Shown: piece after piece, positions 1-28,260 of the stretch | Numbering within the stretch: the first letter of the stretch is position 1 | Layout of the letters: every line of letters begins with the position of its first letter | Source: Haplodiscus bocki | Taxonomy: Eukaryota | Direction of reading: 5' to 3' | Assembly: GCA_965655095.1 (NCBI GenBank) | Contig: OZ296651.1 | Location: forward strand, 117,676,001 to 117,740,000 | Length of the DNA: 64,000 bases | Notes under the pieces: model-generated | What the model was told of the DNA's origin: nothing | Databases searched by the model: none | What the model saw: the letters and a program-made list of their open reading frames with translations, nothing else | Position numbers and translations under genes: made by a program

Positions 1-1597
1 AACCGGATTCTTCAATGAAACACCAGCAACCAAATGGGCACCGAACGTTCGGGTAAGGTTCTTTATCCAAAGCTACTGCTATTTGTTCTTGTTGAAGAGT
101 TTTGATCAGTTTCTGGAAATAATGCAAACGAGCGGTTCCGTCAACGACACATTTCCCATTGATTTCTTTTCCATTGAGAAACTGTTGGACACATGGAGTA
201 AACTTTTCCAAGCATCCCATCCATTGCTGTCTCAGTTCCCAAGATAACAACGTTAAAACATTCAACTGCTGCTCCTTGGGCATTTTTTCATCACTCAAAA
301 GCGTGAAAAAAACAGATGGCCATGCGTGACTCCACTCGATGCGTTCGGAAGTACAGTAAAGTAGACATTGATTGCATAATATGGGAAAAGCGTCCTTGAT
401 TCGGTTACCAAACATTCTGTTTATAAAATCTGACTTTTCTGTCTTAGTAAGCTTTAACGGATATTGCAGCGTGGATTGTCGCAAGCATTTGCCGCAAAAC
501 TCTCCGTCAGCAGACTTAGAATTACCATCTGTCGTTTGTTCATTTGTTGCATCACTGTGTGAAACCGTAGCAGTGTTAGTGTACAGATCCTCGATTTTGG
601 GTATTTCTCTGCTCAGAACAGATTTGGTAGCGTTTTCTGACAACGGTAGCATCGGAAAATTTTGATCTGACTTTGCGTTACAGGAGTTCTGACTTGGAAT
701 GTGTGTGACGTGAGTTTCAAGGCATGTCTTCGAGGTGGATGGATCCGCAGTGTGTTTTGCTTTTTTCGCTGGTGGGACCCCTGTTGTGTTTTCCGGGTAC
801 CTGAAAGATTCAATATCCTCTCCCAAAACTGACGAAGAGAAATGCATTGCGTTGGAACCAAGACAGGAAATTCTTTGTGAACCTGCAGCGTTTTCTTCAT
901 TTGCGACTGAAACCAACTCACTGATTACTTCAAAGTGATTTGCATTCCAGGTTTGCTGAATGAAAATTCCACGACGATTCGTGCTCAGAGAGCATTCATA
1001 AACCAACCAGGATTTCAGAGGAACATGATATAAATATACGTCCATTTGGAAAATCTGACAAAACGCGTATATTTCAACGCATGTTCCGAAGACTCCATTT
1101 TCTTCCATTTTCGACAAACTGAGGTACTCTTGAATCGAAGTACAAAGCAAAACACGGTATTGGTTTGGAAAATCAGCGGAGTAAATTGTGGTTTGTAAGC
1201 TGTTTGGAGGGAAGTTGATGAACATCATGTTGCTAACAATTATATTCCGTAGAATTGAACTACAATCCTGTGACAAACCGAGAGCAACTGCTAAGGATGA
1301 GAAAAGGCAATTACCATCGCCAAAAATCGCAGTTACACGCGCCGGACGCAAATTATAAATGATACTGTCATTTGCGATCGAAACGTCTAGAGAGACTAAA
1401 AAATCAGTTAGACCTAAAGTTGAGAGACAGTTCAGAGTTTCACTTCGTGCAACTGGTGAAACGGAGATTGAAATGTCGGGAATTTTGTATAAGATGCCCA
1501 GCGGCTCATCAGATTGCAGTTCTCGATCAATGTCCTTCAGGCAAACATGGCTTGCAACAGCAAATTGTCCACAAGAAGTACAACGGCGACGCTTCAT
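1..1597 (-). CDS. N-terminal part of the OTU/Rep/helicase polyprotein, divergent subfamily (runs off window, absent from ORF track)
   Basis: Manual translation from ATG 1597 is open to position 1: MKRRRCTSCGQF...EPLGILY...IFGDGNCLFSSLA (OTU Cys)...GVFGTCVEIYAFCQIF...NHFEVIS (OTU His)...CGKCLRQST...AWPSVFFTLLSD...EPYPNVRCPFGCWCFIEESG. Collinear with the unit 1-3 proteins. Confidence 0.9.
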   Translation of the reverse strand, partial: MKRRRCTSCGQFAVASHVCLKDIDRELQSDEPLGILYKIPDISISVSPVARSETLNCLSTLGLTDFLVSLDVSIANDSIIYNLRPARVTAIFGDGNCLFSSLAVALGLSQDCSSILRNIIVSNMMFINFPPNSLQTTIYSADFPNQYRVLLCTSIQEYLSLSKMEENGVFGTCVEIYAFCQIFQMDVYLYHVPLKSWLVYECSLSTNRRGIFIQQTWNANHFEVISELVSVANEENAAGSQRISCLGSNAMHFSSSVLGEDIESFRYPENTTGVPPAKKAKHTADPSTSKTCLETHVTHIPSQNSCNAKSDQNFPMLPLSENATKSVLSREIPKIEDLYTNTATVSHSDATNEQTTDGNSKSADGEFCGKCLRQSTLQYPLKLTKTEKSDFINRMFGNRIKDAFPILCNQCLLYCTSERIEWSHAWPSVFFTLLSDEKMPKEQQLNVLTLLSWELRQQWMGCLEKFTPCVQQFLNGKEINGKCVVDGTARLHYFQKLIKTLQQEQIAVALDKEPYPNVRCPFGCWCFIEESG

Positions 1598-2929
1598 GTT
1601 TTGCTTTTTGGTTGCAGGTTTGATTGCACAAAAAAGGGAAGCAGCATGTCAAAATTTACCATACCTATTTGAAACACAAAAAAAATTACAGACCCCAGAT
1701 AATTGAAGCCGCCAAGGACCCATTTGCGACAAATAGAGCTCCAGAGGCTGCTATAAATTCGACATACAGACTGTGATATTTATTCCTTTCCGCATTTCAA
1801 ACCTTTTTGAAGTTTTTAGGAAAGGACTGTTTCCATAACGGTTACAGTTTCCATTGCGAATTGAATAATGAAAAACAGAAGCGCCTTGGTTTTGCGAAGG
1901 CCTCTGAGCGAAACCAAGGCTTTGGGAAGATGCCTTTTACATATAGTGCTTCACTCGTGCCGACATCAAATAGCAAAAGTCCTACAGGCAAAGCACATAG
2001 AAAACACAATGAAAGTCTCTAAACATTTACAAGAAGCAATAAACTACTTTCCAAATTAACCCTTCAAGAAAGAGAAGCCGATATAAAATCTTTGGCTTCA
2101 GGTCACAAGTTTTGGTCTGCAACAAAAACCAGCAAACTCCTACAGGAAGGAGGCGTATGTCAAAATTCCCCAAAAACTTTCACTTGCGATAATTGGTACC
2201 AGCCAATTACTTCCCCCTTTTGACGTGGAATGAAACAGAGACTATTCACACAACTGCACGAGAAACACACTTTTTGTCATTAATTTACTCAATATGGTGA
2301 CAATTGGCAAACACAAACAAAAACGAAAATAAACTTTTGCAGATACACGCAAAATTGCATCATTTTCTTCCCTGCCAGCACAGCACAACCAAAAACAAAA
2401 AAAATACTCAAGTTTATTCTGCCTTTCATATATTCGAACGTTATTTTTAATGAGCACCCGAAAATCATGAAGAATTTTCCTATAATGACACAGACTACAC
2501 AATTATCTGCCTTTACTTCAAGCTGACTACAATGGCAATCAATCTGAAGCTTGCTTTTTACTGCTGGAAACTTAACCGTCCTGTAGTTGGCGATAAGAAG
2601 AGCAAATATATCTAAAGCAATGAACATGAAAAATTAGCTTAAATTAAACTGACATTGAACTGTTGAACAAAGTAGGATATCATGTTACAGCGTTTTACTG
2701 CTCAGTTGAAAAGAGATAAAACCCTTTTTTCAAAAGCGTGAAACAAGAACGTTACGTAATCTTTCATTCCCACACTGACAGCGGAAACGGTCTGTTTGTC
2801 TAAGAAATTATCCCTTGTTTTCAGTTTACCGCATGACTGACACCAAACTCACCAGCTAACGAATGGCGAACACTAAATGTTACGTGACCGGTGTTTAGGC
2901 CGCAGACGGTTAAAAAGTAAATGAAAGCA

Positions 2930-3790
2930 AGTTCTCCTCCTAAGCAAAACCAATAATATGCTCAACTTTGTTGAACCTGTAGAAATTGTTCCTCTAATGC
3001 CAGTCAACGTTGGCAACCAAGGGGATACATTAAAAGTAACGATTATTTTGTTTACTTTTCAATTTCCCACGTCTCCAATGCGCCATTAACTATTTCAACA
3101 TTTCATGTACGATGATAACAGCGTAGTCCCCCTTTTAGTTTTAGAAATTATTGAAAAGTATTAGTAGTCAGCCAGCGATTCTGACAAGCGTTACACAGCA
3201 CTCTTCTCCCAGGAAAACGTTAGCAAAGTAATTTACCAAAGTTAATGCGCCGAATTTATCGACACAAGCCAAAAATTGTTCACCAAAATCAGTTGAGACT
3301 TCAGTGAGTCAGGAATTACAGGATGAACAGTTCATACGTTTCTATCACATACGAAAAAGTATCTACATGAAAGGGTTCAAATGCGGGATTGGAAATTGGC
3401 GATGCCGAGTTCACGTGAAACAATTTACGATTTGATATAAAAACGCAATATCCAAAAAGAAACCTCGACAAAACTTCACAAGAATAAAACGTATCCATAA
3501 CATGCTCGTTCGCTGATCATTTTATCTGACAACAAGTAATTTTTTACACAAAATTCAAAAGTTATTTTGGAATAAGTGTAAAACTCCGTTATGTATGCGT
3601 CGGAACCGACCGAATAGCCTCTTCCAAGAACCTCACGCAAAAACGTTTGTGAAACGCGACAGTTCTGGTTCGGTCTGTAGAAGAAAAAAATTCTTAAAAT
3701 CGAAACCACTCTTGAAAGTCATCAATAGTAAAGAAGCATCGTTTTAACTGAGCATGATACCTTCAGAAACTGTTTCGATTCCTTTCACTA
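2930..3790 (-). pseudogene. Decayed accessory ORF (unit 0 copy); boundaries approximate
   Basis: Fragments FYRPNQNCRVS...VGSDAYITEF, PISNPAFEPFHVDTF and AVIIVHEMLK*LMAH match the equivalent frames in units 1-3. Interrupted by stops and frameshifts. Confidence 0.5.
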
Positions 3791-4767
3791 ACCACGTTTA
3801 TTGTTGGTAAAAGCTGAAAATCAGGAAAATCAAAGCACGAATTTCACCACTTGACAAAAGAAAGACACACATTTAGTCTACTATCAGCACTGATACGTCA
3901 TCAAAGTGGCCTTTAACTTGTCATAATCTATGGCTGACGATGACTTGATGGAGACAATGGAGACAAGTGTCTCAAGTCAATGATGAAAATGGCTAGTTAC
4001 CATTAATCCTTTTGTTCTGCTTCTGGACGCATTAAACGTATTTAATGCGTTTTGAACGGTGCATGAATAAAATAGTTACATAATGGATGAAATGTTTTGG
4101 CGCGGAACTTTTTGTTCATGAATTTCTCTGGTACAGAACACCTAACTGTACTTTTTCATGTATGAAAAAGGCCAAATGACGTGGACGAGCCCGCAACACC
4201 AATATTGTTTCTCTGAAGAACAAAAAACGGTATGGAGGACCACCAAGAAATGCTTCAGGTACATCACCCATTCTGCAAGCCAATGATTTCTTTGAAAAAT
4301 TCCGGATTAAACAAATGGGAAGGTTATCCAATGAAAACGTTCATTGTTATGTAAGTCGGTCACGGGTAAATGGGTGAAGTTAAATATTATTTCTGCAGCT
4401 GACAACTTTAAAAATTTGTTACATTAGCGCCGTTTTGACCTGAGTTTGTGTAAAAATCGACCAGAAAGTATGTTTGCCATCCTTCATTGCTGCTGTTGTC
4501 AACTTTTAAAAAGTCTACAAAACTATACGTTTTGCGGAAAAAACGCAATCTTACGGTGTGAGACAAACTGTCCATGTATCCATGTATCAGTTGTACCGCG
4601 TCGTGTGAGCTATTCTTCAGCCTGGAGTAAGGTATCGTAAATAAAAAAAACAACAGTTTCCTTTTATAAAAACAACCCTTTAGAAAAAAGAACCAATCAC
4701 CAGAAATGATGCAGCAAAAAAATTGGATGCAAAAAATCCCGCCTTCTGGTAATTTTCACCGTCGCCT

Positions 4768-5814
4768 CCACTGGGTGGTCAGGTGATTGCGCCCCACATA
4801 GGTCCTCGCGAGGCGGGGGAGGGGCCCCTTTGCCTCGCGTTAAAATATAGGAAATAACAAATACGCACATACGGTATAGGGAATGTGCGATCTCAGCTCC
4901 CACCCATACGATTTGGATCAAACTTTGCATGCGGACATAACTTTCAATTCTAAGAACAATGGTGCAAGTTAGATCATTTTAGCAAAAATGGTTGGGGAGT
5001 TATGACGGGATGATTCTGTTTTTTGGCCTCATTTTGCAGTTTTTTACCGACAGCCCTGCAAGTAACCAGATGCATTTGGCCGAAACTTTTCGTGTGAAGC
5101 AGAATAACTAAGGGCTACACGCATGCAAGAAATTTTCTACCAACTCGTCATAGGTGTTGAGATATGACGGATCAAATTTGGAAAAAAATGCCGAAAATCG
5201 GCCATTTCGTCATAGCTCCCACATTGAAGTGCATAGTTTGCCCTCTGGAGTGGCTCCAGTATGAAATCAACTCCATAACTTGAAAGACAATTTTCCGAAG
5301 ATGAAAAATTTTCGGCCACTTTGCCGAAAGAAATGACGGTTATGACGAAATTTTCGAAAAAAATATTAAAAATTTCCAAAAACTCAGTTTTGATTGTAGA
5401 ATTCATATCTGGCAAATGTTTTGTCCAACTTTCCCCCAAATTTTTCTTACTGCATAGTTTTTTGAATTTTAACCTTTTTTTGTGGGTTGAAGTATTGAAA
5501 TTTTCTGGAAAAACAATCATAATTTGGCCCAAAATTTAAAAAAAAAATTTCGAAATTCAAATTGTTAATTGCCCCGCCCCGTTGTTTCGTAGATTAGCGA
5601 AGCGACACGGAGAAACAACGGGGCCAAACTGTTCGGAAGCTTCGTCTTCAATGTCCTGTCGATTTCAATGAAGATTTCACAGGCTCAATTTCAATGCATT
5701 AAACAGGCATTTGCAAAACTCATTACTGTGTTCGAAGAAAAGACTATCAGTAATGTATCATATTTCAGAGGTGCTTCTCCAGTGACCGCCACCTGGTGAT
5801 TTTCACCGGTGCCT
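4768..5814. mobile_element. Short non-coding module, type A (1047 bp), putative non-autonomous partner
   Basis: Bounded by junction motifs at 4768 and 5815. First ~580 bp are homologous to the left terminus of the long units (GAGGCGGGGGAGGGGCC, CCATACGATTT.GATCAAACTTTGCATG, AATGACGGTTATGACGA). No credible ORF. Confidence 0.8.
5576..5624. other. 13-bp stem / 23-nt loop hairpin specific to the short modules
   Basis: GCCCCGTTGTTTC (5576-5588) is the exact reverse complement of GAAACAACGGGGC (5612-5624). Copies at 6623-6671, 41225-41273 and 59216-59264. Confidence 0.85.
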
Positions 5815-6861
5815 CCACTGGGTGGTCACGGGATTGCGCCCCTCATAGGTCCTGGCGAGGCGGGGGAGGGGCCCCTTTGCCTCGCGTTAAAATATAAGAA
5901 ATAACTCTATGCAAATACGGTATAGGAAAATAGCGATCTCAGCTCCCACCCATACGATTTGGATCAAACTTTGCATGCGGACATAACTTTCAATTCTAAG
6001 ATCAATGGTGCAAGTTAGATCATTCTAGCAAAAATGGTAGGGGAGTTATGACGGGATGATTCTGTTTTTTGGCCTCATTTTTCAGTTTTTTACCGACAGC
6101 CCTGCAAGTAACCATACGCATTTGGCCGAAACTTTTCGTATGAAGCAGAATAACTAAGGGCTACACGCATGCAAAAAATTTTCTACCAACTCGTCATAGG
6201 TGTGGAGATATGACGGATGAAATTTGGAAAAAAATGCCGAAAATCGACCATTTCGTCATAGCTCCCACATTGAAGTGCATAGTTTGCACTCTGGAGTGGC
6301 TCCAGTATGAAATCGACTCCATAACTTGAAAGGCAATTTTCCGAAGATGAAAAATTTTCGGCCACTTTGCCGAAAGAAATGACGGTTATGACGAAAATTT
6401 CGAAAAAAAAACTTAAAATTTTCCAAAACCTCAGTTTTGATTGTAGAATTCATATCTGGCAATTTTTTTGTCCATTTTTCCCCCAAATTTTTCTTACTGC
6501 ATAGTTGTTTTGAGTTTGAAACTTTTTTGTGGGTTGAGGTATTGAAATTTTCTGGAAAAACAATCATAATTTGGCCCAAAATTGAAAAAAAAAAATTCGA
6601 AATTCAAATTGTTATTTGCCCCGCCCCGTTGTTTCGTAGATTAGCGAAGCGACACGGAGAAACAACGGGGCCGAACTTTTTGCAAGCTTCGTCCTTGATG
6701 TCCTGTCGATTTCAATGAAGATTTCACAGGCTCAATTTCAAAGTATTAAACAGGCATTTGCAAAACTCATTACTGTGTTCGAAGAAAAGACTATCAGTAA
6801 ACTATCATATTTCAGAGGTGCTTCTCCAGTGACCGCCACCTGGTGATTTTCACCGGTGCTT
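5815..6861. mobile_element. Short non-coding module, type A (1047 bp), tandem copy
   Basis: Close direct repeat of 4768-5814, bounded by the same junction motif. Confidence 0.8.
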
Positions 6862-8196
6862 CCACTGGGTGGTCACGCTTTTTAGCCCCACAAAACCGTT
6901 TGCGAGGCGGGGGAGGGGCCCTGTGCCGAGCTTCATAAATCAAGTTTACACCTAACCGGACCCCCCCGAAAAGGAGACGATCTCGAAACCTAACCATACG
7001 ATTTCGATCAAACTTTGCATGTGGATAGAGTCTGCCGATGTATGAAGATTTTTGGCACTTACATCATTTTCTTTTTTTTTCGTTGGGGAGATATGACGCA
7101 ATGATCCTGTTTTTTGGCAGGTTTCGATGTATTTTTCGCAATATCTCCACACTTTAACCATAGCATTGGACTCAAATTTTTTCTGTGAAGCACAATTGTT
7201 GTGGACTACCTACCTGCCAAAATTTTTTGGCCAGGGCCTTTTGCCCTAGGAGATATGACCTTTCAAAATTGTCAAAAATAGGCCAAAATCGACCAATTTG
7301 TCATTTCTCCCACGTTGATGTTAAAAAAGTGATGTGAGCTTTCGTCACAACGTGACGGGACCTGTGTCAAATGAAAAAAAAATTTCCGACAAAAAAACAG
7401 TTTTGGTCAAATTGCCGAAAATAATGACGGTTATGACGATTTTTTGAGGAGGAAAAAAAAAACAGGTAAAAAGTCAGTTTCTCCTCTACTTCATCTGAAA
7501 TCCGTCAACTTTTTGAAGGCGGGAATGAAGCTTTGCTGAAATTTCATACTCAACTATTAGGCTGGGAAACTGTCGGTAACACAAGTTTTAACTTGGGCCA
7601 ATTCAAGGAAACTCGCTGCAGTTTTTTTTCTTTCAATTCCAAATTATTTGTAATAGAAATTATGAAGATTATGTTATAGTTATACATAACTGTAGCAACT
7701 TTTTTTGTCTCAGTGGACATTGAATTAGATTTGAGGTGACTAGTTACAAGGAGCTGCACAAACTTTTTTCTGAATGACCCATTGAATTTTTAATGAACAT
7801 TATACGTACCAACAACAGAAAACAACTTAAACTGTGCTAAATAAAGTTCACTAGTAATACAAAGTGAAATCTCAGTTTAACTGCAAATGAATGGTAGCAA
7901 CCCTTGAAAATTCAATTGAATGCACGTAGAAAAAATGCACTTCATGACAACTATCTTTTTCTTAAACGACAATTGATCTTTTAATTTTGGGCAAACACCT
8001 TACGGTCGAATGCCTTGTGACAGTCGATGTTGCATGCAAACAACTTTCGGTAGCTTGCGGAATGATTCATTGCACCTTGTTTTAATTGTCTCTAATACCT
8101 GTGTTGCGCCTGTAATTAATTTGTAACTGTAGTAAAAACTATCACAACAGTGATTGATATAAGATTTGTTTGAGTTTTGTTGGTTCAATGAAGTGT

Positions 8197-9210
8197 TCAT
8201 CTCATGTTGTTTGCATTGTCACTTGCCGGCAAACTTGCGTTAGCGTGAAAAAGGCGTGGTGGCTGGTTTGTATCGTCTCCAGTCCAGGGAATTACATTGT
8301 ACTTCAAGTTCACAGGGATCTCAGTCGCTGGAGTGATCCGACAAATTCTTACCCTTTGAACATTTTGGGCAATGTTTTCTTCTGTCAAAGCAGTTTTGTA
8401 GAAGCCTGACACTCTCCATCCACCATTGTTATTAACATGGTTGGCAACACGCATGACAGCTTCTCTCAAAAGTCCCCTGTCAATTGATGTGTATGCCGAT
8501 CTAATGATAGCTTCCTCACAAAAAAGTTTGGTCAAAGACAAACTTTGCAGAATATCCCCTGTTAGAGGATCATCGTCTTCGTTCAATATGTCCTGACTAA
8601 TTACCCTTGCTGACATTACCCATGCCCACAAAGTCGATTTTTGCAAACATGCACAAATGCTTTCGTTTTTTCCATTTCTTCTGTCGCACAAAAAACCTGA
8701 ACAAGTCGGAAACACAGGAATTGCGTGCAGAAACGAAAGGGGTCGATGTGGGAGACAGAAGTGGAACATTGCACCCGTCGAGGGATTCAAATCGATAGGA
8801 ACAGGCTCCATTGGCAGGTCGTCGGTAACTACCTCTAACGGAAGAGACACGTTGAAAATTGGATTGGTTCGATCGTTACCAAGGCAGGAGTTGGAAAATA
8901 TTGCTTCTTTCACATCAACGATGGCACCAATAGTTAATTTTCGGTCAGCAAAAAGGAGTGAACTTTTCTGCGCAGAATCGGCTATTACTGCAAAGCATTC
9001 TCGCGTTTCCATTTCGCCGATGATGATTAGGCGATCATAGTTTGTGTCAGGGGTCAATCTTTTAGCTTTTACAGTTTGCGGTCGAAATAACTGTAGGGGA
9101 CGATCAAATTTTTTAAAAACCAAAACAACACCTCGGATATATGTGTTCTCACTGTTTCGCAAGAAATTGGGAGCAATAATTTGGGCTGTATTTACACGGG
9201 TGGTCATCAT
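8197..9210 (-). CDS. 337-aa accessory protein of unknown function with Cys cluster (CSGFLCD...CAC)
   Basis: ATG-ATG start at 9210. The 1014-bp frame is the same length in all four copies and is open in units 1, 3 and 4. Confidence 0.8.
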   Translation of the reverse strand: MMTTRVNTAQIIAPNFLRNSENTYIRGVVLVFKKFDRPLQLFRPQTVKAKRLTPDTNYDRLIIIGEMETRECFAVIADSAQKSSLLFADRKLTIGAIVDVKEAIFSNSCLGNDRTNPIFNVSLPLEVVTDDLPMEPVPIDLNPSTGAMFHFCLPHRPLSFLHAIPVFPTCSGFLCDRRNGKNESICACLQKSTLWAWVMSARVISQDILNEDDDPLTGDILQSLSLTKLFCEEAIIRSAYTSIDRGLLREAVMRVANHVNNNGGWRVSGFYKTALTEENIAQNVQRVRICRITPATEIPVNLKYNVIPWTGDDTNQPPRLFHANASLPASDNANNMR

Positions 9211-10553
9211 CTGGAACATTCCCTTCAAGCACCATCTTACACAACGCGGTTTACACAATGACATTTTTTTAACCTATTCAGGATGCAGAACTAAGTGTTC
9301 TCAATAAACAAAACAAAGAAGATGAAGTTGAACATGATCAAATACAACTTCACTAAATTTTCCACGTTTCAGTGAGAATTGTTAGTATACATTAAAAGGT
9401 TCGATATTAAAGTTGTTGCTCTTTTTTTACATTGAAAAAATTTACATGATTATTTACATGATGCCACGCAAAAGGTGGAACTGACTTTTTTCAACTTTTT
9501 TTTTCACTTTTCAACGGTCTGAAAGTTCAGTCAATAGTAAATGAGGGGTATGTTTGGTCTTAATTACATTCTTCAACGAACTTTCACTGAACAATCATGG
9601 CTGCAAATGCAAATGAAAAGAGTATACGTGTTGAAAACGTGTTAATTCAGGATAAAATTGAAGTTCTTTGTGGTAACCAGTCTAACATGAAACTAAAATC
9701 TTTTGAAAAATGATTAATTCATTGCACAGACAATGATAGCAACTTGAAAGAAATGAAACAATCGACAGTTTTTTGACTTAAACAAATGAAGTTGAATCGA
9801 AGCTACATAAAACGATATTTCAGGGGAAGTAATCTGCGGAATGTTCCATTTCAATGAGAATTTCAATTAGGTACAAAAAAGTAACAGAAATAAAAACAAC
9901 GCCGAACAAAAAGCAACATTCAAGGGTTTAGCAGTATCCATGGGTTTAGCAGTATTCACTTTATGGAGAAACGTATGTGAAAGAAACTAGCATACATAAA
10001 AAAACAACGCAACATACCAAATTCAAAGGTTTACCGGATTAAAATGACATTTACTCAAAAAATCATTGAGTTTTGTTGAGAAGTTACAAAAAAATAGCAA
10101 CTCAGATCACTTTACAGTCGATTCCAATTGTATGCACAGTAAAACAACCAATAACTCCTATTTGTTTGCTGCATGATAAAATAGGAATATCTGTTTAATC
10201 GAATATGCCGAAGGAAGCCTTCAAAACCTTGGTCGTTCAGGTTTCCCACAACACTTTTATTTCTTTTTCAGTTGGAAAACGATGTGATTGCTTTCAGAAC
10301 CCCAGTCGACATTGAGCAGGTGTACGTATTCTGCGACGCTCTGTTAAAAGAGTGGGCATTAAACAATTACAATTGATCACAATTTTGTCGACCACATTAT
10401 GAAAACTTTTCAGTCAACTTTGATATTTTAAAAGAAACTAAGAAGAAAGAAAACAAATACGCCATTACCAAAAAATCTAACACAGGGTACCATGTTAGAG
10501 ACTGCGTTCAATAATCAACAACTACTTCACGAAAGCTTTGTTACTTGTACTTA

Positions 10554-11306
10554 TCACAGGTCACAAAAATGTGGTACAGTACCCAAAATTCTGTTTCTTA
10601 GAATGTACATCAAGTTGGAAACACCGTGACGAGATAAATGCACGCCATCCATCAAATTCCTCTCGGAGCTCATTTTGCTAGCCACCGACAAAAAATTGTA
10701 TTGACCCGAAGAGTTTCTGAGTCCATCGTTCACCCTTTTGATATCTAGGAGGCAACGTTTGGATCTCATGACAAGAGCCAGACAGTATACTGTGTAACAC
10801 ATTGGAGTGGCCAGACGCACGAGGTACATAATGTCTCGAACCACCTAAGATTTAACAAAATTTTTTGAGGTGAACATGCACTTCGTTTGATTTTGTCGAA
10901 CTTTCTTCAAATTTTGGAGGAAAAAAATGAAAATACTTTCAGTTTCATTTGACGCTCAGCTTTTCAATAGGAAAATTTTTTTCGCAGGGAAATATCACCT
11001 GCTTATCAATTCATGCACAATGCACCCTGATGTTGCAATGAGTATTTTCCTGAAAATGTTTTCAGTCGCGACCAACTTGACATTCTGTTGAACAAATCAC
11101 TCACTTGCTCAGGAGTTTTTCCTGCTTGTAAGTGCATTTGCCCCGATGAACAGAATGATTGATTCATAAAACGTTGTTAGGTTTCTTAAACAGTCAATTA
11201 CCGGACGGCAAGATGCCGTGGCACCAGAGAAAAACTTCACTTCCAGGTTTTCGTGCTTCCTGACAAGTCTTCTGCCAAGAGAATCAGCTATGATAAGATG
11301 TCTCAT
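10554..11306 (-). pseudogene. SGNH/GDSL hydrolase gene, frameshifted (unit 1)
   Basis: Same two-exon layout as unit 2, but a 14-bp deletion at the end of exon 1 (...TSRKNS* instead of ...TSRGRQRGKTPEQ) shifts the frame. Confidence 0.8.
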
Positions 11307-12217
11307 TTAGATCTGCAGAACGTTGAAAAACAAAGACAAGGGGGGACGACAAAAAAACGACAATTAATGATTCCAACATCATAGGTACACTATGATGGAA
11401 CACAGAAGATAAGTGTCTTTAGCATTAAATTGGAGTATAAAACGCAAGAGCTGAAAAAATCATTGCTCCGAAAGCTCTAAATATATATTTGCTCATTTGA
11501 GTGTGTCTGCTTTTTGGTATAGAAGTTTCACTAAGGTTTCACTAAATGTTTCACCTTGCGGTCGAAACAGGAAGAAGTACAAGGCTTTTATCATACACTA
11601 TCTGGGAGTATATCGTTATTAGGACAAACAAAAAAGAAAGTGTTCGATAAGCATACGTTAAAAATGCAGTGCAAAAAGTTAAATTTTCTAATCAATCAAC
11701 TTTACTAACAGTGGGCAATCAGGAACGTTCTTTGTTAAGGGGCAGTTTAAGAACACCTAATGTACCCATTTCAATGTTCCAAAAAGCATGTTGAAAGTGC
11801 AGCAAACTTTTTTCTGCAAATGAATTTTGTCGAGAAAGTTTTGTATTAAACTTACTTAAACGTTGAACTCTCTGGAAAACAGTACGTTGGCTAAATATTC
11901 TGTAGACTACTCTCAAAGACGTCACAAATTGAACAATTGAATTGTTGTAAATAGCAAAAGAAAAAACATTTAGAAATAACAAATTCAGCGTTCTTTAAAC
12001 ACAGCAAAAAGCAAAAACACACATACTAAAAACATTATACGTGCACCTCTGGAAACCACCGGGGACATTGAAGGTATACGTTGGACGTTTAAAAATTCAT
12101 TTCATGTGTTGAATAAATAATGAACTTCAGGTTTGTTTGTGAGAAAGCATTCACTTCGTCACATTTCACAGTCGGCGAAGCATTTGATAAGTAGTTTGTC
12201 AGTGTTTCTCTAAGGTA

Positions 12218-15200
12218 CTAAAGTAATATAGGCTGATTACAGCAAATTACCAATTTCAAGACATCTTCTTTATGCGGCCAATTTATGATTAAGTTTTCTG
12301 CTGTTGACAATGCATTCGGGAGGGAGATGTTCTTCTTCCTCAAGTTAAGCACTTTAGTAACTGCCTCAAGCCACGGTTTTTCAAAAAACCTTATTCTCTC
12401 CGTTGAGCTGCTTGCAAGAAAACCAGTCACATAAGCACACAAAACCCAAGGTCTTCGAGAGGGATCCTGTGTGAATGATGCTCCCAAGCCAACATTATGT
12501 TCACGAATTCGTCGATTGAGGCACATTGTTGAACCAATATATAATAAGTTGTTTTGCGGGACGCTCTGAATAAGGTAACAGTAGCCAACATTCTCCTGCG
12601 GTATACTGATGGTTGATGGAAAAGGGTTTGTAGCACCATGGAAGATCGTTGGGTCACGGGAAGAACACTTCTGGAGGATTTCGGAAGTCAGCTCCGACCA
12701 CTGTGACTTTTTACACAGCAAACTCAGAATGGCTCCTTCGTTCGACTGCTTCGATCCCACGAAAGTGATGTCCGCCAGTGATCGAACACGACTCATTACT
12801 ACGTATAGTTGCTCTGGCAACCAAAGTGAAAACTCTTGGGCTCCAACAATCTGCGTGGCAACTGTTGGGAGTGTTTCGCCCATAGTTTTATGAATAGTTG
12901 ACGCCACGTACAATTTGAGGGGGAATTGGATTCTGCGACAAATAGTTCTGTGGTTTAGACGAATGTTCACTCCAATTTCTTTTGCAAGGACAATACATCT
13001 CCAGGTACTTCGAATTACAGAGAGTGGTGGAATGGATCGGCAACCAGCAGGTGCCAAGGCAACAGTTACTGTTCCGTTGTCAGCCAATGAGTCCAGGGAA
13101 ACCAAAACACAGAGTTGTCCTTGGAAAGCCATCACATTTGGCTTGTTCACAGTGAGTCGGAGAATTGCTCCGGGGAACAGAAACAACGATTGTGGCTCCA
13201 AACATTTCTTGTTTAGAAACTTTGTTACCGCTCCAGAAGCTTCTATCCAGTTGTCCGTACTTGACACGCACATTTCAACTGTCGATGAACTTTCATGGAA
13301 CTGGGAACCACTGTCTTTCACTTGATTAATATTTTCAACGTCGCATATCTTTCTGCTTTGCGAGTAGCAAAAATTCGAATTGCATCATTTGGTACGTCAT
13401 CCCAACATTATACGAAATTGCAATTTCGCTCGATCAAATTCCAAATTTGCTTTCCGATGGGAGGTGTTCTGGGAAAAGTTGACATGAGTGACAAAACTTT
13501 CTGACCTGCTTCGTTTTGCATACGCACAAAGTGCTGGAGGAAACTAAAATGAAAAGTCGTTAAAGGGAATGAAGAACTGATCAGACAACTTCCTTTTCGT
13601 GGAGGAAGTTGAAAAAAATCTCCTGTTGCAATGATTAGTTTCCCAGCAAATGGCACGTAGTTCGAGCAAATGATTTGGAAAACGTGGTCCGTGGCCGCCC
13701 AAAGTTCACTAGAGATCATCGAAATTTCTTCAACGAACAATACATCCAAATTCTGGAGAAGCCGACTTTTGTCCGGTGATTTCTGCAAGCTGGACAAAGC
13801 TACTCGAGACAAAGAATTAACAGTTCCATTTTTTTCCACCGGGAAAGGAATAAGAGCGTTCAGATGCTTCCCACCTAAAGCAGCCGACCTTTCGGCCGCC
13901 AGCGAAGTTACCATGCAATTGAGTCCTTGACATATTGCATAACTCAGAGCTCTCAACATGATGAACGTTTTTCCCGTTCCTGGTGCCCCTGCAATGATTT
14001 GATGTCTGACGAAATTTTGTGTTCCTCCTCTGTACAAGTCCACCATTTCAACTAAATGTTTCAAAATTTCACTCTGTTCACAGTACGACTTCACTGTCTG
14101 GCCAGGATGTCTACCAAAGTCCGGTTTCCAAACAATGGGTGCAGTTAGGGAAGCGTCTATCATACTTTCTTCGCTTGGAAGTCCCATTTGACATGTGTGT
14201 AAGAACTCTACCAATCTACTCTTGTTCATTGTCAAATCTACAGCAACATTTTCTTCGGAGTCGGCAGAGATAGTGCGATCCAAAACAGCTGGTACCCCGG
14301 ATGCAAAATACAAATTGTTTTCTAACAGTGCCTCTCCTAGAACACTATTTGCCATCAACAAATACTTGTCAATGAGTTTAGAGGATCCTGGCACAAAGCG
14401 GAGCTGTTGCAGTAGGTACCGGCGAGCTAGTTGAAGGACGACTGCTACAGTAATGTTGTTACGCTCGACCAGGTTGGCAGCTACAAAAACTTCCCTGAAA
14501 GAGGAAACAGAGAGAATGTCCAGTTCGGTGTCAAACGAACCAAAAGTTAGCACAAAGTGCAACAAGAACTTTGCTGGACTACTGGGCAGATTATTTGTGA
14601 AAACCACTATGGCTTTTTGATCTGAGAAACAAAGATTGTACGCTACTAGTCTGGGGCAACTTTTGGTTCCTTGCAATTTGGGGACAATTTGTTTGCGGCA
14701 CTCCTCTTTCAAAAATTCGTCCCTCGGCTCATCACTTCTTGTTGCACAGAAATCAAGAAAATCAAAGATAGCGGATGGGCGTATCTTGATGACGTATCCG
14801 AGGCAATCAACCCAAAAGTCATTACACGATGCACGGCTCAACAAAATCTCATGACTACTTTTCCCTTTCGAAATGTTGTTTTTGAGTCTAACGAACCAAC
14901 TGAAATAACTTTTCAAACTGCTGACAAAGAGAAGCTCCGGTGGTCTCAGCCCAAAAATGGTCACTTTGTCAGGCGTAATCGAACTCGCTTCTACATCTGC
15001 CAACAACAATTCTTGATTTTTTGTTAATTGTCGATGTTTTGGAAGCTTCAGGACGTTTTTCCGAATTCGAACAGCTTCGGCAAAAACAGCACTGATGTTC
15101 ATGGTGCTCGCAGTATATTTTTCTATCACTATTCCTGATCTGAATTCTTTGGGAACTGTTGGTACATGAATGAAATCTACGTTTCTGCAAACGCACGGCA

Positions 15201-18200
15201 ACTGCAAAGCCCACCACAAGCATTCAGTAATGCTAACAATTCTTCCTGTTACAGATTTGCGTTTATCATCATCCTGACGTTTTTTGGTTACGCTGGATTG
15301 GACACCGGCTATTTTTTCATTCACAATAGGTTCCGTTTGCACATTCACTTCATTCTCACCAGCAGAGGCTAATATCTTTGTGAACGCCCGACCTTCCACA
15401 CCGGCAGCATACTTTGCAACGTATCGTGAACACATTTCGTCGTCACAAATTTGGACGTTCGTACTGCTTTCGGTGAAAGCAAACAAAGCTGCATTTGTTG
15501 GTGACGAGTGTTCATTGTAAGCAGCAGGGTAGTGATGTTTTCCAGCTCTCAGTTCTTCTTCAACTTCGTCTGTTGAAGAGTTAGGGTCAATATAGGACAA
15601 TTTCATGCTTCTCAGCAAGTCCCAAGTTTCTTTAGAGTAATTAGGTTGTATTTCCTTGTAAGAGAACCCAACTGATGCAGGATATTTAGGTACCCTACAC
15701 ACTGGCTTTCCCGACCAATCAGTTTTCTTTTTACATCTATTTTTTCCTTTGCCACAATCGTGCCGTTGGTATCTTTGGAAAAGTTCTCCCAACCGGAACC
15801 GTTCTCTATCCGATAATGCTGGACAACATTTGCTCAAGGCGCCCATGAATGTTTCTTTCGAACAGCAGACTCGGGATTGAACTTCCGGACCAAACTTGTT
15901 TTCCTCGGTACACACTAGTGCATGGATGTGTGGAAAGGCCGAAGTTTCATCTTGCCACTCGTATCTTATCCATAAGTGAGAGATTGGTCCCAAAGGTTGC
16001 TCGGCCGAACACTTCAACCATTGCATTACATACAGTGAGGCGCGATGCCAACATCTAAGCATAGGCATTAATTCACTTTGTATTACAGATAATCTCAGTT
16101 CTTTCGATGTAATATCGGGCGGGTAAAGTTTGTCAATAGCCTGGAAAATTTTCCGCAAGCCGGGGTGAGTAGATTGTCCACATGTGTATGTAACAAAATA
16201 AGTGGGGTTTTTATCTCTAATGAGTGCTGCTACTTCGCACACATTTTTCCGGGATTCTGCACAATCGAATTTGAACGTTTCATCGGAAAAGTACTGATAA
16301 TTAGTAGGCGCACTGCCCAATTCTTGCCAGCCTCTGTTCAACACAATCCGAATATCAGTTTTACTCAATTGTAAGTTTAAAAGACAGTCAAAAACGAACT
16401 GAAGATAAGATGCGTGACTGGAGGTTAAAAGCGACCCATCAGTGATGCGAGTTCGCAGCATGTTCTCTAAACCTGCAAACCCTACTTGTTTGTTGTATTT
16501 TTCGGATTGGAACAGGGATATTGGAATTGCTCCTTCAATGCTGCCTTCGTAATTTTGGGACCAGAAAGTAGAAGGAAAAAGCAGTCCTTCCGGTTGAAGC
16601 AAAGGCGTTGATGATGTCGAGGAAGCTGTAATGTTTTCCATGAAACGTTTCTCCTTAACGGTTAGGGTAATGGGATGACCTTTTTTCCTGTACAGTAAGT
16701 TGCATCGAGAATTCAACAGTATGTGGAGAGGAATATTGTAATTTTCCTCACTGACAGCCTCTTGTACAGCAACAATGGCCCTTTGACCCGAACACACGTT
16801 CAATTTATTCATCACCAATTCACTTTCGCTGATCGAGTTTGCGTTCATGTTGTTGCACAAAAAAGAAGCTAACGACGAACTTGAGTTTTGACTTGAACAG
16901 TTGATGGATAAATCTGGTTCAACAACGCTTCTGTCCTGCTCACATAAACTAGCTATGTTGGAATTCAGTTCACACAGTGCACCATTGATTGCAGCTTCAG
17001 CGTTTGGTTTTTCAGGCGCTAATTTTCGTTTTGCTATAGGTCCAACTAAAACTCGTAAGTTCGGATGTTTCATTCCCTCGTCGAAGTGTTTCTTACACAC
17101 ACAACTGTTGCACTTTGAGTAGGCACATCTGAGGAATGATGACCTTCCACATCGACAGAAGTAGTTGCTACGTCGGAAGTCCCTTGTTAAAGGAACATCA
17201 AGTTTGTCACAAATGAAAACTCCTTGACCGGTTAAATTACTGAGATAGTGCCACTTTACAGTCGACACTTTCTTAGAGTTAGTTCCTCGGTAGATTAAAA
17301 AACTCCAGTAGCCTCGTAGCATTTTTTTCTATTAAGGTCTCAGGTGACTCCAACAAAGGTTCAGCAAACTTGTTAGCTTTCAGTGTACGCCAAAAATTGC
17401 AGAAGCGACCACCATGCCGAAGCAAAGTTACAGCATCTGTACCCCGAGAACCACAACCACATCCCACAAGCTCAAATTGGACATCAAACACGATGATATT
17501 GAGAGGTGGGTTGACCTTGTTCCTCAAATTGTTTACATCAGTTGTTGTAGCAATCACGTGTTTCGTATCCATGGTTACGTCGCGCACAATTTTCTCAGTC
17601 AATTCTATTCTTTGGCTCAAATGCAGATGGCATAAGTCAGCACATAATGCGTGCAACACCACGCCACCCGCCTGAAAAAAGTTTGAAATCATGTTTGGGT
17701 TGTCATTGTTAGTCGCCGCGTTGTTCAATATACTGTCAATGTCAGCTTGAGCTTGTGAAATACGCTGCAACTTGCTTTCTTTTCCAAACCAAGCAAATGT
17801 ATGACCAACAGTGACAACAAATTTGTTGCCAAAACGTGGTTAACGCCGGATACCATGGATGAACATAAAATTGGAGAAATGCAGCATGCTGCTTGAAGAA
17901 ACCAGAGTGTATCTCCAGTATCATTGATCAGAGGAGGAGGTGAGCAACCATGTTCATTGTTTGGTTGAGCCAAAGCGTAGCACTGAAGAAATTTCACATT
18001 ACTCAAAAGTTCTTGTTCGTTTTTGTCTATCACTTTCGTCAATCGAATGCAGGTGTCAAGATCTACGCCGACATGCTCCGGCATTTTTTCCTTTTTCAGC
18101 TGATATTGAGAGAGATCAGTGGCGACATCTTCAATCAATTTACCTTGAACAACCCATTGTCTAATTAAAATTGGGATATCTGACCTGAAAAACATGGCGG

Positions 18201-20313
18201 TTCCTTCAGCCTGGAACAAACGATTGCTAGTGATGTTCCAACGCCGTTTACGTCTCAACGAAACAGTACTCATACCACTATAAGACCCAACGCTCCGAAA
18301 CAGTTGATAGGTGTGGCTAGCATAATTAGCCTTGAAGCTACTCACACACGACAATGAAGGTGATACAATGGCTAATCGTTCCTCAAACAAAGTTGGAATT
18401 CGTCCCAGCTCCGGATGCCTGGGGGGATGCAAGAACTGTAACTCACATCCCCTGTCATGCGCAGAACAAGTTTGCACAACCAAACCTTCTTTCTCATGTA
18501 ACCGCAATGTGGCAGCCACTAGAAACGTCTTTAAGCACATCAAAGGGCGCAAAAAGTCGAGTCTAGCGCCTCTGAGTTTTTTGAATGCAGACGCTTGGAA
18601 TGATGTGAAAGTTCTGTCTATTAAGTTTACAAAATGCTGCGCTGGTATGTAGCCAGGATCTTCGATAAACGTCCAACAACCGAAAGGGCAACGTATGTTT
18701 GGATACGGTTCCAACTCCAAATCTTCAGCCATTTCTTTTTGTCTCATTGTTGTCATTAGTTGCTCGAAACGTTTCAGTCTCTGTGTTCCATCAACAGTAC
18801 AAGTGCCAAAAATACGCCGCCGATTCAAAACACGCTGGATGCAGATAGAGAAAAGGGTAATTAGCCCTAGCCAATGTTGCCTTATTTCCAGGGGTAACAG
18901 CGAGCAAATAGCGACTAAACAAGCTTCTGGCTCGGAAGTATCAGAAAGGAGCGTGAAAAAAACAGCTAGCCAAGCCATTTGCCAGTTAACTTTTGGTGCA
19001 GTACAATAGTTATAACAGAAACAACACACATGTACGTTATCGTTTTTCAGCTTCCTACCAAACTTTCTATTAACCAATCCAGCTTTGCTGTAGGCCTTAA
19101 TGTCGAACGGAAAATATACCGTGGCTTGACGCATGCACTTGCAACAAATGTTGGCAGCATCGACAGTATCTGTCACAACCAATTTTGACTCAGTTTTAAC
19201 GGTTGATTCTTCAGTCAATTCCGATGATGGAACAAAATTTTCAGTTATTTTCAGTAAAATCTCATCAGTCAACTCGCCTCCAGGCAATCTGTGAAACTGA
19301 TCTTGTCGATGTTCCACAGCAGTTGGAGGACGGCCTCTACTTCGCGTTGTAGTATTTTCTCCATCACAAAGAGCTTCTGCCAAACAAAAAGATGTCACAG
19401 CTGTATTAGTTTCTCTATCGTCGATCAAATATGTGGCGACTGGATATTCTGAAGACCGTCTGCGCTTCTGCAACGGCTCAGTTTCATCAAGTGCTGCAAG
19501 CGCTGTCTGGATTACGTGGCAGTGAGTATTCATTGCTGAATTTGCACATTGACTACTCGAACCAGCAACATCTTCTGATAGGAGTGATGAAGCGTGGCAT
19601 GTTTCGGTCAAGCCACTAATTACCTCAAAGTGATCTCCAGTTCGCGTTTGTTGAATGAAAACGCCTTGTCTGTCATTTGAGCAGTCGCATTTGTAAACGA
19701 ACCAATTTTTCAAAAGACTGTGGTATACATAAACGTCCAATTTAAAAAATTGACAGAAGGTATATATTTCAACACAAGTGCCAAAAACTCCATTTTCTGC
19801 CATTCGTGATGTCTGCAGGTAGTGGTTGACAGTTGGACTGGTGAGAAGTTTGTTCTGGTTGGGGAACTCAATGGAATAGATAGAAGGTTGCAAACTGTTT
19901 TCCGGAAAGGTTACCGAGTCCATGTTACTCACAATATGTTTCCTCAAATCATGACCACTTTCATGAGAGAAACCGATAGATACGCCCAGGGCAGTGAAAA
20001 GACAATTACCATCACCCGTTATTTTAAGACTCTGCGAGGGTTGAACAGAAGTGAGGCGAATGTTAGTTTTATTCACAATTATGCCGCTTGTTGGGGAACA
20101 GGATAGTCCCATCGCTTTCAACGTTGATTCTATATGCAGGCTATCAACAGATGAGACCAGCAAATTACTATCAGCTATACTGTACAAAATTCCTAATGGT
20201 TCGCTGGTTGAAGAAACATTGTCAGTGGTATTTGGACAGGAGTGATTACGTTCACTGAAGCGTCCACATTTTGCACAGCGACGTCTTTTCAAATCACTCT
20301 TGCCAGATGGCAT
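12218..20313 (-). pseudogene. Disrupted OTU-Rep-PIF1-GIY-YIG polyprotein (unit 1)
   Basis: ORF pieces 17725-20340, 17279-17770, 13408-17322 and 12218-13321 are collinear with unit 3. Lesions: 1-bp loss near 17806, extra A near 17322, GAA>TAA at 13408, 1-bp loss near 13330. Confidence 0.9.
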
Positions 20314-21989
20314 TGCTCTTTCACAACAAACTTCGCTCAAAAGTTTATCAATACCTCATCTTTAATAGTGAATACAATGTAAAGAGTAGGCGCCATTATA
20401 GAACCAACGTTCAAAATGACATCCTTTTGCTCGGCTTTCAAACTGTTCAATTAACGGTAGCATCTAATTAATTCGAAAAAAGTAGTATCCAGAAAAATAC
20501 ATGCAATGTGGGCCTTGGTTTTGCGCAGTTAACGGAGCAAAACCAAGGCATTCATCAGAGAATGAAAACAAACAGGTACTTACTTGGAGAGGCGGCGATG
20601 TAATGAGTGTTAATTGCGAATCTTGTGTTGTTTAAAAATCGTATTTAAGAAAATAATTTCCGTTCGCCCATACAAGTGGAACGCATCTCGATGTTACGGA
20701 TTCCCGTAAATTATTAGTGTACATGGCGAGTTCTGTCAAGTTTTTTTCCACAATCCTCAGTAAAAGAGACTACAATGCACATCACAATGGTTCTTAGAAA
20801 CCAACAATGTTCAGTTGGAAAAACCAACTGAGAACGCATAAGTGTTGAGCGAATTCATACGGATTTCGAAAGGTGTTTTGGAAAACTGTGCACTTTAGCA
20901 GGCCTGCAAGTTAACCTAAAAAGAGTAATCTTGAAAAATGAGGAGGCAAGAAATGGAGAAAAAAAAGTTTTCCGAGATCTTACTATTAATTCAGGCAAAC
21001 TAAAATTATGCCCTATTCTTTATGACGGAAGTCTGACACGAGGTGAAAATTGACTGCACAGAAAAATATCATCACGTAGAAAACCCGAAATCCTAACAAA
21101 CTAGAGAACTATGTTTAAAAGATTCTCACCATCTTGTTTCTCTCTTAGTAAAATCTTGGCTTCCAAAATCATTGCATGATACGGAAGTTATGGAAGCTGA
21201 GAAAACCAGGTGATTCAGTTGAGAAAACAACTGCTTGGAGCAGTGGTTGATCAATAAAAATTCAATCAAAAATATCGACAGCGTTTATGTAAATGCTAAA
21301 AATGAAACATTCAAGTTGATTATTGTACAAAGCAGATGGGATTTTTGACAGTTGAAACAACAAACAGCAAGAGGCCCTCTTTTTCCCCCGCGAAAAAACA
21401 CGTTAACAATTTCACCTTGTCAAAGTTTCATTTGAACACCTGAAGAATGTAAACTTTCAGTATTTGCCGAAATTTTTGAAATTGTCGTCAAACAGAAGTC
21501 GTTTTCTTATAAGTGCGTCACAAAGTTGATCCACAGTCCCATGCGTGGTACTTCCACGCCACAGATAACACACAGTTTGCTATGAATGTTGAGGCAGTAC
21601 CTTCCACCAAAAAGTATTTTCCACAAGCAAGGCTTTTCGCTAACATCTGCACAAAACGCGTCCGAATCCAAACAGTGTTGTCGGAAAAGGCAATTTTTTG
21701 CGGTCAAAACTATTGATAATATGATCTGAATTACCGTCATTCGATCTTGAATTTCGCTCCAAAAAGGGTAAAAACAATTGAGTGGTTGATCACATGGAAG
21801 ATGAAACGAAACTCACAGGCAACACAAACATGAAGATTTTTCAATAGCAGCAAAAACACGATGAAATGACGCACACACTGTCAAGTTTGTCAGAAACCTA
21901 TAGGTAATGTAATTCTGCGAACATGCACGTTAACACTCCGTAGCTTTTAGGCGGTAGAAGGGTAAAAAATTAATGAAAACATTTTCTCC

Positions 21990-22850
21990 GTAGCAAAACC
22001 ATTAGCTTGCTCAACTCTGAGGAGCCCGTTGACACTGTTCGTTCAATGCCAATCATCTTTGGAATCCATCGGTATAAATTTAAAGTTACGATTATGTTGT
22101 ACACTTTTCAATTTTTCTTACGCCTCTCATGCTCCATCAGCCACATTAGCAATTCATGTAGGATGATAACAGCGGAGTTCCCCTTTGGAATTCGGAAATT
22201 GTGGAAGAATACCCAGTAGTCAGTCAACGATTCTTACAAATATTATCCAGCATTCTTCGTTCAGGAAAACGTCAGTTAAATAAATTACCCGAAACAATTA
22301 GCTCAATTTATCGACAGAAGCCACACGATGTTGACCATAGTCAGTTGAGACTTCAGTGAGCCACGATTCACAAGAGGAAAACTTCAAACGATCGAATGAC
22401 ATAAGAAAAGTGTCTACTTCAGAGGGCTCAAATGAGGGATGGGAAATTGGCAAAGTCTAGTTGACGCTAAAGAAATTATGATTTCATATCAAAACGCTTT
22501 ATACAAAAACTAACTTCGGCAATAGTTGAGAGGAATGACACTTTGCTATATTTCGCACGTCCGCGGATAATTGTTTTGACAACGAGAAGCATTATTTCAC
22601 AGAAAAATCAAAACTTACTTTGAAAAAAGTTCGAAACTCCCATATGTAGGCTTCAGAACCAACCAAATATAATCTTGCGAAAAACTAAGGTAAAAGAATT
22701 CGTGAAACGCGACAATTTTTGAACGGTCTGTAGAACAATAAAATCTTCAAAATCGGAAACACCCAAAAACGACATCAAGAGTAAATAAGCATCGTTTCAA
22801 CTGTACACATTACCTCCACATATTGTTGAAGTTGCTTACACTAACCACAT
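21990..22850 (-). pseudogene. Decayed accessory ORF (unit 1; also ~38600-39470 and ~56580-57450); boundaries approximate
   Basis: Fragments FYRPFKNCRVS...VGSEAYI, PISHPSFEPSEVDTF...WLTEVSTDYG and SAVIILHELLMWLMEH show amino-acid-level similarity to unit 0 (2930-3790). Confidence 0.5.
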
Positions 22851-27496: not shown

Positions 27497-28260
27497 TCAA
27501 AGGTCAGAAAAACGTTGTACAGTACCCAAAACTCTTTTTCTTAGAATGTACATCAAGTTGGAAACACCGTGACGAGATAAATGCACGCCATCCATCAAAT
27601 TCCTCTCGGAGCTCATTTTGCTAGCCACCGACAAATAATTGTATTGACCCGAAGAGTTTCTGAGTCCATCGTTCACCCTTTTGATATCTAGGAGGCAAGG
27701 TTTCGATCTCAAGACAAGAGCCAGACAGTGTACTGTGTAACACATTGGAGTGGCCAGACGCACGAGGTACATAATGTCTCGAACCACCTAAGAGTTAACA
27801 AATTTTTTGAGGTGAACATGCACTTCGGTTGATTTTGAAGAACTTTCTTCAAATGTTGGAGGAAAAAAAAGAAAATACTTCCAGTTCCATTTGAAGCTCT
27901 GCTTATTATTAGGATAATTTTTTCGCTGGGAAATATCACCTGCTTATCAATTCATGCACAATGCACCCTGATGTTGCAACCAGTATTCTCCTAAAAAATT
28001 TTCAGTCGCGACCAACTTGACATTGTGTTGAACAAATCACTCACTTGCTCAGGAGTCTTTCCCCGCTGTCTGCCCCGGCTTGTAAGTCCATTTGCCCCGA
28101 TGAACAGAATGATTGATTCATAAAACGTTGTTAGGTTTCTTAAACAGTCAATTACCGGACGGCAAGCTGCCGTGGCACCTGGGAAAAACTTCACTTCCAG
28201 GTTTTCGTGCTTCCTGACAAGACTTCTGCCAAGAGAATCAGCTATGATAAGATGTCTCAT
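27497..28260 (-). CDS. Two-exon SGNH/GDSL hydrolase, 168 aa, intact (exon 1 28260-28045, intron 28044-27788, exon 2 27787-27497)
   Basis: Donor CAA|GTGAGT and acceptor CTCTTAG|GTG join in phase 0. The spliced protein has the SGNH blocks in order: IIADS (Ser), PGAT (Gly), IGAN (Asn), DGVH (Asp/His). Confidence 0.85.

Follow-up and report, generated by a model that had tools for sequence, protein, structure and literature searches.

What does a conserved stem-loop do in a non-coding module of approximately 1 kb, and is it peculiar to such modules? The question is raised by the window analysed here, a stretch of 64,000 nucleotides that is part of contig C4 of a 1.5-Gb eukaryotic genome and in which long units (14.7-16.9 kb) and short modules (~1.05 kb) are arrayed head to tail. 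A sequence-only reading had proposed that the short modules carry a covarying stem-loop of their own, possibly an origin, a second-strand priming signal, a nuclease substrate or a structured RNA. The features of the window are as follows, with hairpin positions given as the fraction of the unit length L from the right end of the unit.

1..4773, plus strand: right part of a 14,737-bp A-type long unit (remainder upstream, L043)
1883..1920, plus strand: internal hairpin of the A-type long unit, 0.195 L
4774..5820, plus strand: short non-coding module A1, 1047 bp; begins GGTGGTC and terminates CCTCCACTG
5576..5624, plus strand: hairpin of A1, with a 13-bp stem, a GTA/GGA internal loop and a GC-GAA-GC tip; centre 220 nt, or 0.210 L, from the right end of the module
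5776..5829, plus strand: right-end/left-end junction of two modules, cut point CTG|GGTGG, with a short asymmetric inverted repeat and a small terminal hairpin
5821..6867, plus strand: short module A2, 1047 bp
6623..6671, plus strand: hairpin of A2, same as that of A1, 0.210 L
6868..23808, plus strand: long B-type unit, 16,941 bp, with its ORFs on the minus strand
20512..20549, plus strand: internal 13-bp hairpin of the 16,941-bp unit, 0.193 L
23809..40423, plus strand: long B-type unit, 16,615 bp
37119..37156, plus strand: internal hairpin of the 16,615-bp unit, 0.198 L, in a copy with a deletion left of the hairpin
40424..41468, plus strand: short module A3, 1045 bp
41225..41273, plus strand: hairpin of A3, same as that of A1, 0.210 L
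41469..58406, plus strand: long B-type unit, 16,938 bp
42794..43828, minus strand: 344-aa ORF, candidate OB-fold single-strand binding protein (a lead only)
46814..54953, minus strand: RepHel polyprotein, here in three pieces, with OTU, weak Helitron_like_N, PIF1 helicase and SLX1-like GIY-YIG domains
55110..55147, plus strand: internal hairpin of the 16,938-bp unit, 0.193 L, the most stable 60-nt DNA window of the unit
58407..59462, plus strand: short module B1, 1056 bp
59216..59264, plus strand: type B hairpin with a GC-GCA-GC tip, 0.210 L
59463..64000, plus strand: left portion of another long unit, which runs past the end of the window

The RepHel polyprotein of the long units combines OTU, Helitron_like_N, PIF1, and GIY-YIG domains. 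Its PIF1 match lies above the Pfam cut-off and the weak Helitron_like_N match below it (E 1e-4), with HIH and Y..KY motifs visible, and close homologs carry PF14214 and PF05970; in the broad sense of an HUH Rep fused to a PIF1-type helicase, the elements are Helitron-like. When compared with the Helraiser structure 7lcc, the helicase part alone matched (E 1e-5), and the best structural relatives of the C-terminal GIY-YIG domain were SLX1 proteins (E 4e-6). The 344-aa ORF, whose OB-fold look-alikes are a lead only, likely encodes a predicted OB-fold single-strand binding protein.

The head-to-tail junctions of 154 distinct complete units are precise (CTN|GG) and, as read from these junctions, show no target duplication; the units begin with GGTGG and terminate in CTG, CTA or CTT. 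All 4 unrelated left flanks examined have CTN as their last three bases (the search pattern left CTN unspecified), and the right flanks at array edges have G as their first base in 8 out of 9 cases and GGT in 7 out of 9. These CTN left flanks and GGT right flanks point to a nick at CTN|G, from which the plus strand would be peeled left to right, a polarity that we infer from the junctions only; insertion would take place into sites like the element's own junction. Judged by their ends and flanks, the elements belong among the Helitron-like elements but possess neither the HLE1 ends (5' TC, 3' CTRR, A|T target), given their GGTGG and CTG/CTA/CTT termini, nor the T|T target of HLE2/Helentron elements at the edges examined. 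An imperfect 9-bp terminal repeat and a small hairpin are found at the ends of the A and B modules and are weaker in the long units. Many short and long families with different ends are mixed in the arrays (G000; L045, L047, L049, L141-L142), consistent with families inserting into each other's CTN|GG junctions.

The internal hairpin of the short modules is as first described. Each of the three type A modules contains a perfect 13-bp stem with a 23-nt loop (5576-5624, 6623-6671, and 41225-41273), and the type B arms (59216-59264), checked by hand, differ as reported by two changes on both sides, a G.T and a T.T. Only the window copy has the G.T wobble, other B1 copies having G-C, and the change from G-C to T-A is kept only in B1, the commoner B2 having T.T at that position. 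We found the 49-nt hairpin in 4 out of 4 short modules of the window and in 81 out of 81 distinct modules of ~1.05 kb from four families (A, B, D, and E), a set that was fetched around hairpin-pattern matches and is biased towards hairpin-containing arrays. Against a control, the loop pattern gave 146 genome matches versus 2, the A/E arm palindrome 151 sites versus 0, and the right arm followed by the right terminus 180-200 nt away 163 matches versus 13. A covariance model matched only the four short-module copies within the window at E<=10 and gave 82 matches above 45 bits in 464 kb, none of them in the long units of the window.

The fold common to the families comprises an outer stem of 10-13 bp, an internal loop that invariably has G.A on its left and GGA on its right side, and a tip with C-G as closing pair; the inner stem is complete only in family E. 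The A and B tips read GC-GNA-GC in 49 of 50 units, with A, C or G as N. According to the accessible text of PMC13037366, this is the DNA mini-hairpin of phage and plasmid priming sites; GNA hairpins, which are much weaker as RNA, occur at the origin of phage G4, at RSF1010 ssiA, and at the N4 promoter. Family E has a five-base tip of the G-N-G-N-A type in 17 out of 24 units, whereas family D (8 copies) has lost the internal loop and shows a tip inverted onto the other strand and a perfected right arm in all 7 complete units, which looks like the outcome of one template switch. Since the inverted D tip was amplified nonetheless and E has a five-base tip, the loop as earlier defined is neither strictly conserved nor essential. 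Two further ideas were ruled out: the inverted tip of D does not track the inverted ORF of its helper, as the ORF of the E helper is oriented likewise while the E tip is not inverted, and an alternative register (an inner TYCG/CGGA stem with a bulge) is not supported by families E and D.

The strand of the hairpin follows the termini and not the ORF, with 0 of 74 A, B, and E copies flipped and 7 of 7 D copies in one orientation. This bears on the possibility that the hairpin is a substrate of the SLX1-like GIY-YIG domain, a nick at the stem base resolving an intermediate or making a self-priming 3' end. SLX1 cuts branched DNA, a specificity that, together with the structural match of the C-terminal domain and the inverted loop and perfected palindrome of family D, would fit such a role. 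Routine hairpin transfer, however, predicts flip/flop isomers as at a rolling-hairpin, parvovirus-type terminus, and none were found among the 74 A, B, and E copies, D being fixed; the absence of flips and the single orientation of D instead fit a single template switch. We consider a nuclease substrate distinctly unlikely.

The folding z-scores of the region 5566-5634 are -3.3 as DNA and -3.4 as RNA, and those of the type B copy -0.9 and -3.2, respectively. Values of -3.2 to -3.9 on three of four strands could also indicate a structured small RNA or a promoter element of the satellite modules (a Pol III A box or inverted Myb-like sites), and the E inner stem shows a T-A / T.G / C-G series. 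The motifs invoked are an A/B loop that we take to resemble an A box and E tips that presumably fit a GNRNA pentaloop. Nevertheless, Rfam and ARAGORN gave nothing credible at the hairpin, the E loop does not fit an A box, and there is no conserved B box downstream. When RNA contigs of two runs were compared with positions 4700-5900, a single contig of 151 nt was identical over the hairpin, at a depth of 3 and from a run labelled as another organism; it is given no weight here. An RNA or promoter role appears very unlikely.

Conservation of the hairpin is much stronger than that of its surroundings. Among 67 of the 81 units, hairpin identity between families is 64-78% (z 6.8-11.7), compared with 48-57% in the adjacent 150 nt to the left and right, a background level (~50%) except for D-E; within families, the values are 91-98% and 81-92%, respectively. 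This bears out the claim that the span is kept while the flanks diverge and supports the selection that had been postulated. In an alignment of 12 subfamily variants with 20 pairs, both-side changes occur at 5 pairs, a number matched by 19 of 500 shuffles (37 of 500 in a similar second test), while the covariation score was reached by 0 of 500 shuffles and slid controls give 0-1 both-side pairs; 7 of the 13 outer pairs never vary. As the changes amount to just ~3-5 events on a four-family tree, the covariation first reported is suggestive, and conservation of the primary sequence, as aligned here, is the stronger signal. One could also suppose that the hairpins are neutral palindromes kept symmetric by template switching, with covariation and placement inherited from ancestry; template switching at the hairpin is seen in family D, and the few both-side events and the shuffles reaching their number would agree with it. 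The far better conservation of the hairpin relative to its flanks would not, and we regard this explanation as extremely improbable.

Each short family matches its cognate long family over the left 560 bp (median 94-96%, versus 60-66% between short families) and has a right end of ~35 bp in common with it; the left ~570 bp of module B1 are 93-97% identical to the adjacent long units. When the interiors of the 81 modules (base 700 to -50) were used as queries against 26 long units, 6 of them gave a match of 27-30 nt, which lies away from the hairpin, and nothing else matched. The modules are therefore not simple deletion derivatives, in agreement with the sequence-only reading, and the HINE-type derivation of the interior from an autonomous partner was not observed in this comparison. 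The total length of the short families A, B, D, and E stays within 1024-1061 bp even though their interiors retain only background similarity, suggesting that size is under selection. The left region common to modules and long units contains a conserved inverted repeat (5157-5219 and equivalents; spacer of ~38 nt), probably a transposase-binding array.

The hairpin had not been found in the long units. The covariance model indeed gave no match in those of the window, but a hairpin of different sequence occupies the equivalent relative position, so that a signal special to satellite modules is not supported. Every long family carries a non-coding hairpin of its own, in most cases more stable than any other 60-nt DNA window of the unit, and other short families in the same arrays (1.25, 1.43, 2.1, and 3.2 kb) also carry an internal hairpin. 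In order to locate these without bias, the 154 complete units were clustered into 19 groups, from which 57 units (at most 5 copies of each short and 3 of each long cluster) were scanned for the most stable 60-nt DNA window regardless of position. Of the 55 units left after exclusion of two composites (C4a_9248 and L074_2707), 47 have their top hairpin at 0.193-0.227 L from the right end; in 7 others the hairpin is second behind a terminal hairpin, and one decayed copy misses.

A first fit with 17 families gave d = 33.6 + 0.1923 L for the distance d from the right end, with residuals of at most 23 bp, and six additional long units, which belong mostly to these families, deviate from it by no more than 26 bp. 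For all 23 families, spanning 1.0-21.9 kb, d = 36 + 0.195 L with an R2 of 0.9989 (0.986 for the 11 long units alone); the dominant hairpin lies at 0.193-0.227 L in all of them, corresponding to left:right ratios of 3.4-4.2. Composites or chimeras were left out of the fits (a 20,951-bp unit at 0.209, a 17,835-bp unit at 0.311, and a shortened 2,886-bp copy at 0.236), and the 17,985-bp long family is represented by one copy. A uniform null has a probability of ~1e-9 if 8 independent hairpin lineages are counted by eye, a rough value since the families are related.

Four diverged families were fetched after the prediction had been fixed, using a RepHel query 35% identical to the Rep region of the window. 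The hairpin lies at 0.204 in a 12.0-kb family (3 copies), at 0.200 in an 11.4-kb family, where it ranked second by 0.1 kcal/mol, at 0.207 in a 15.5-kb family (2 copies), and at 0.220-0.222 in a 3.07-kb family (7 copies, top in 6). The stated band of 0.19-0.20 was held by just 1 of the 3 new long families, and the offsets of the four from the fixed line were +52, +113, +193, and ~+58 bp, so the ratio differs slightly between clades.

Where related long families differ in length, the difference is distributed over the two sides of the hairpin at ~4:1 (e.g. +1885/+425 and +1363/+315 bp). The position is kept despite a RepHel ORF that is on the minus strand in A/B and on the plus strand in D/E and despite a differing gene order. 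Passive inheritance does not account for a fraction that stays constant over a 21-fold range of lengths with matched two-sided gains, and this scaling largely refutes the neutral explanation. A nuclease site alone gives no account of proportional placement, and the structured RNA first considered fits poorly as well, there being no reason for its position to be proportional to DNA length in coding units of either orientation. The hairpin is thus a real, selected feature and part of a larger positional rule. As no relatives were found in two metagenome scans, and viral scans gave either helicase-region matches at 21-35% identity only or nothing, the rule rests on one genome. It is apparently undescribed: the open literature searched gave no description of an internal hairpin, stem-loop or second-strand priming site in Helitrons.

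A position tied to DNA length and termini, and not to genes, points to the geometry of replication. We propose, with a probability of approximately 0.55, that the hairpin is the origin of second-strand synthesis, positioned so that back-synthesis and displacement finish together. RepHel would nick CTN|G at the left end and peel the plus strand left to right; with ~80% displaced, the hairpin would fold in the single strand, and the host primase/polymerase would start the minus strand there, back towards the left end. Given the 4:1 split, the faster synthesis over 0.8 L would end as the helicase covers the last 0.2 L, implying a speed ratio near 4, and once the helicase reached the right end, the ends would be joined into a double-stranded circle. 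The short modules would have retained just the parts required for this cycle, namely the helper-matched left ~600 bp, the ~35-bp right end, and a hairpin at the right fraction. Of the options initially listed, second-strand priming is now the best reading, although not as a satellite-only signal, since the long units have the counterpart; a Rep nicking origin is unlikely because the element ends at the junction ~200 nt from the hairpin.

By analogy, the hairpin probably works like a single-strand origin, albeit a putative one. In the accessible text on Helraiser, the plus strand alone is transferred, the circles must be double-stranded, and minus-strand priming is left open, with ordinary lagging-strand synthesis proposed by the authors (PMC5876387). 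The single-strand deamination gradient expected under this reading, measured at four-fold sites of seven long families, has within-family slopes in the predicted direction, neither of them significant (-0.06, p 0.22; -0.09, p 0.09), the pooled skew trend being mostly gone after within-family centring. Counterpoints to priming are family D, which amplified to 8 copies without the internal loop and with its tip on the other strand, and the hairpin sequences, which vary widely from clade to clade. Somewhat more tentatively, at slightly less than even odds, the origin position may act as a timer inherent in the element, a 4:1 division that is fixed, encodes the ratio of polymerase to helicase speed, and has to be kept in balance by every indel, and the 1-kb modules may be a long-lived satellite lineage that swaps left ends with helpers and keeps its own origin.

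The scaling would be accounted for equally well if the hairpin were not a priming site but a pause, hand-over or meeting point of two processes at speeds of ~4:1, such as a pausing helicase, a site where a second RepHel or the OB-fold protein is loaded, or the meeting of forks. Such a point could work with any strong stem and with the loop in either orientation, as seen in family D, and the Helraiser terminator signal is likewise a hairpin, according to the accessible text of PMC4778049. However, no element ends at the hairpin in the complete units mapped, and the arm sequence is kept beyond the needs of an obstacle, given the 7 of 13 outer pairs that are invariant among the 12 subfamily variants. 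We therefore consider a pause or meeting point rather unlikely.

As described in the accessible text of PMC11417382, PMC4067079, and PMC5148889, HLE2/Helentron elements with their HINE and DINE-1 partners resemble the present elements in having RepHel with OTU, an ORF in either orientation, and non-autonomous partners with both ends in common, and may also resemble them in an OB-fold-like gene, short asymmetric inverted repeats, and a terminal hairpin; a GIY-YIG domain is reported once, in a Sphagnum HLE2. They differ in their T|T insertion (CTN|G(GT) here), in their AP endonuclease (none was detected in the present elements), in the interiors of the partners (those of the present modules are not deletion products of the helpers), and in hairpins that are terminal (within ~60 bp of the end) rather than internal and length-scaled. 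With Helraiser/HLE1, the accessible text of PMC4778049 and PMC5876387 indicates a common head-to-tail array formation and an assumed plus-strand rolling-circle cycle via double-stranded circles, whereas the TC...CTRR ends and A|T target are absent here, and the Helraiser hallmarks include a terminal hairpin only, without the internal one. The pT181 sso, phiX174 ssi, G4 origin, and RSF1010 ssiA likewise have their hairpin on the displaced strand and away from the nick site (PMC5714925 and PMC13037366, accessible text), and the GNA tips recur among such origins (PMC13037366), although here the strand polarity is presumed and the family D tip lies on the other strand. Unlike these origins, for which the accessible text describes no proportional placement, the present case is a eukaryotic transposon, and its priming is presumed. 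The main mechanistic paper, in its accessible text, does not settle how Helitron circles have their second strand primed (PMC5876387), and here one site of 30-50 nt per element is singled out. With a single site and a quantitative position rule, the question can be tested directly by shifting or removing one hairpin of a 1-kb module. Whatever its role, a cis signal at a constant length fraction over a 21-fold size range is unusual, and the positional rule would constrain cargo capture and vector design for such elements.

The mitochondrial light-strand origin OL and the lentiviral central polypurine tract also start the second strand at an internal genome fraction, seen at one genome size, whereas here the fraction is held over 1-22 kb. 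Begomovirus deltasatellites, too, are small and non-coding, travel with an HUH replicon, and have a secondary stem-loop; unlike them, the present modules are integrated transposons, and their helper has its own counterpart hairpin.

Several minor observations concern the families of these arrays. A- and B-type long units are 74% identical over their rightmost ~1.9 kb (56545-58400 and 2894-4773), which contain no long ORF. In the D/E long units (L032-L033, L069/L104), the gene cassette is inverted relative to the termini and the gene order differs from that of the A/B units of the window, and there is an additional ORF of 226-236 aa. The A-type long units L196/L197 (17,047 bp) and L043 plus window (14,737 bp) are 90% identical over the left 3.1 kb and 72% in RepHel, pointing to possible recombination between families. 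Besides its hairpin at 0.22 L, family G (1.43 kb; L045/L046) has a second palindrome ~100-170 nt from the right end, with a stem of up to 37 bp and a GC-rich loop. In the H and I short families (e.g. L048, L049), the last ~30 nt before CTA are hypervariable between copies and the GC-rich terminal hairpin is constant; a variable, guide-like stretch of ~27 nt before CTA in some left flanks is actually the right end of these families.
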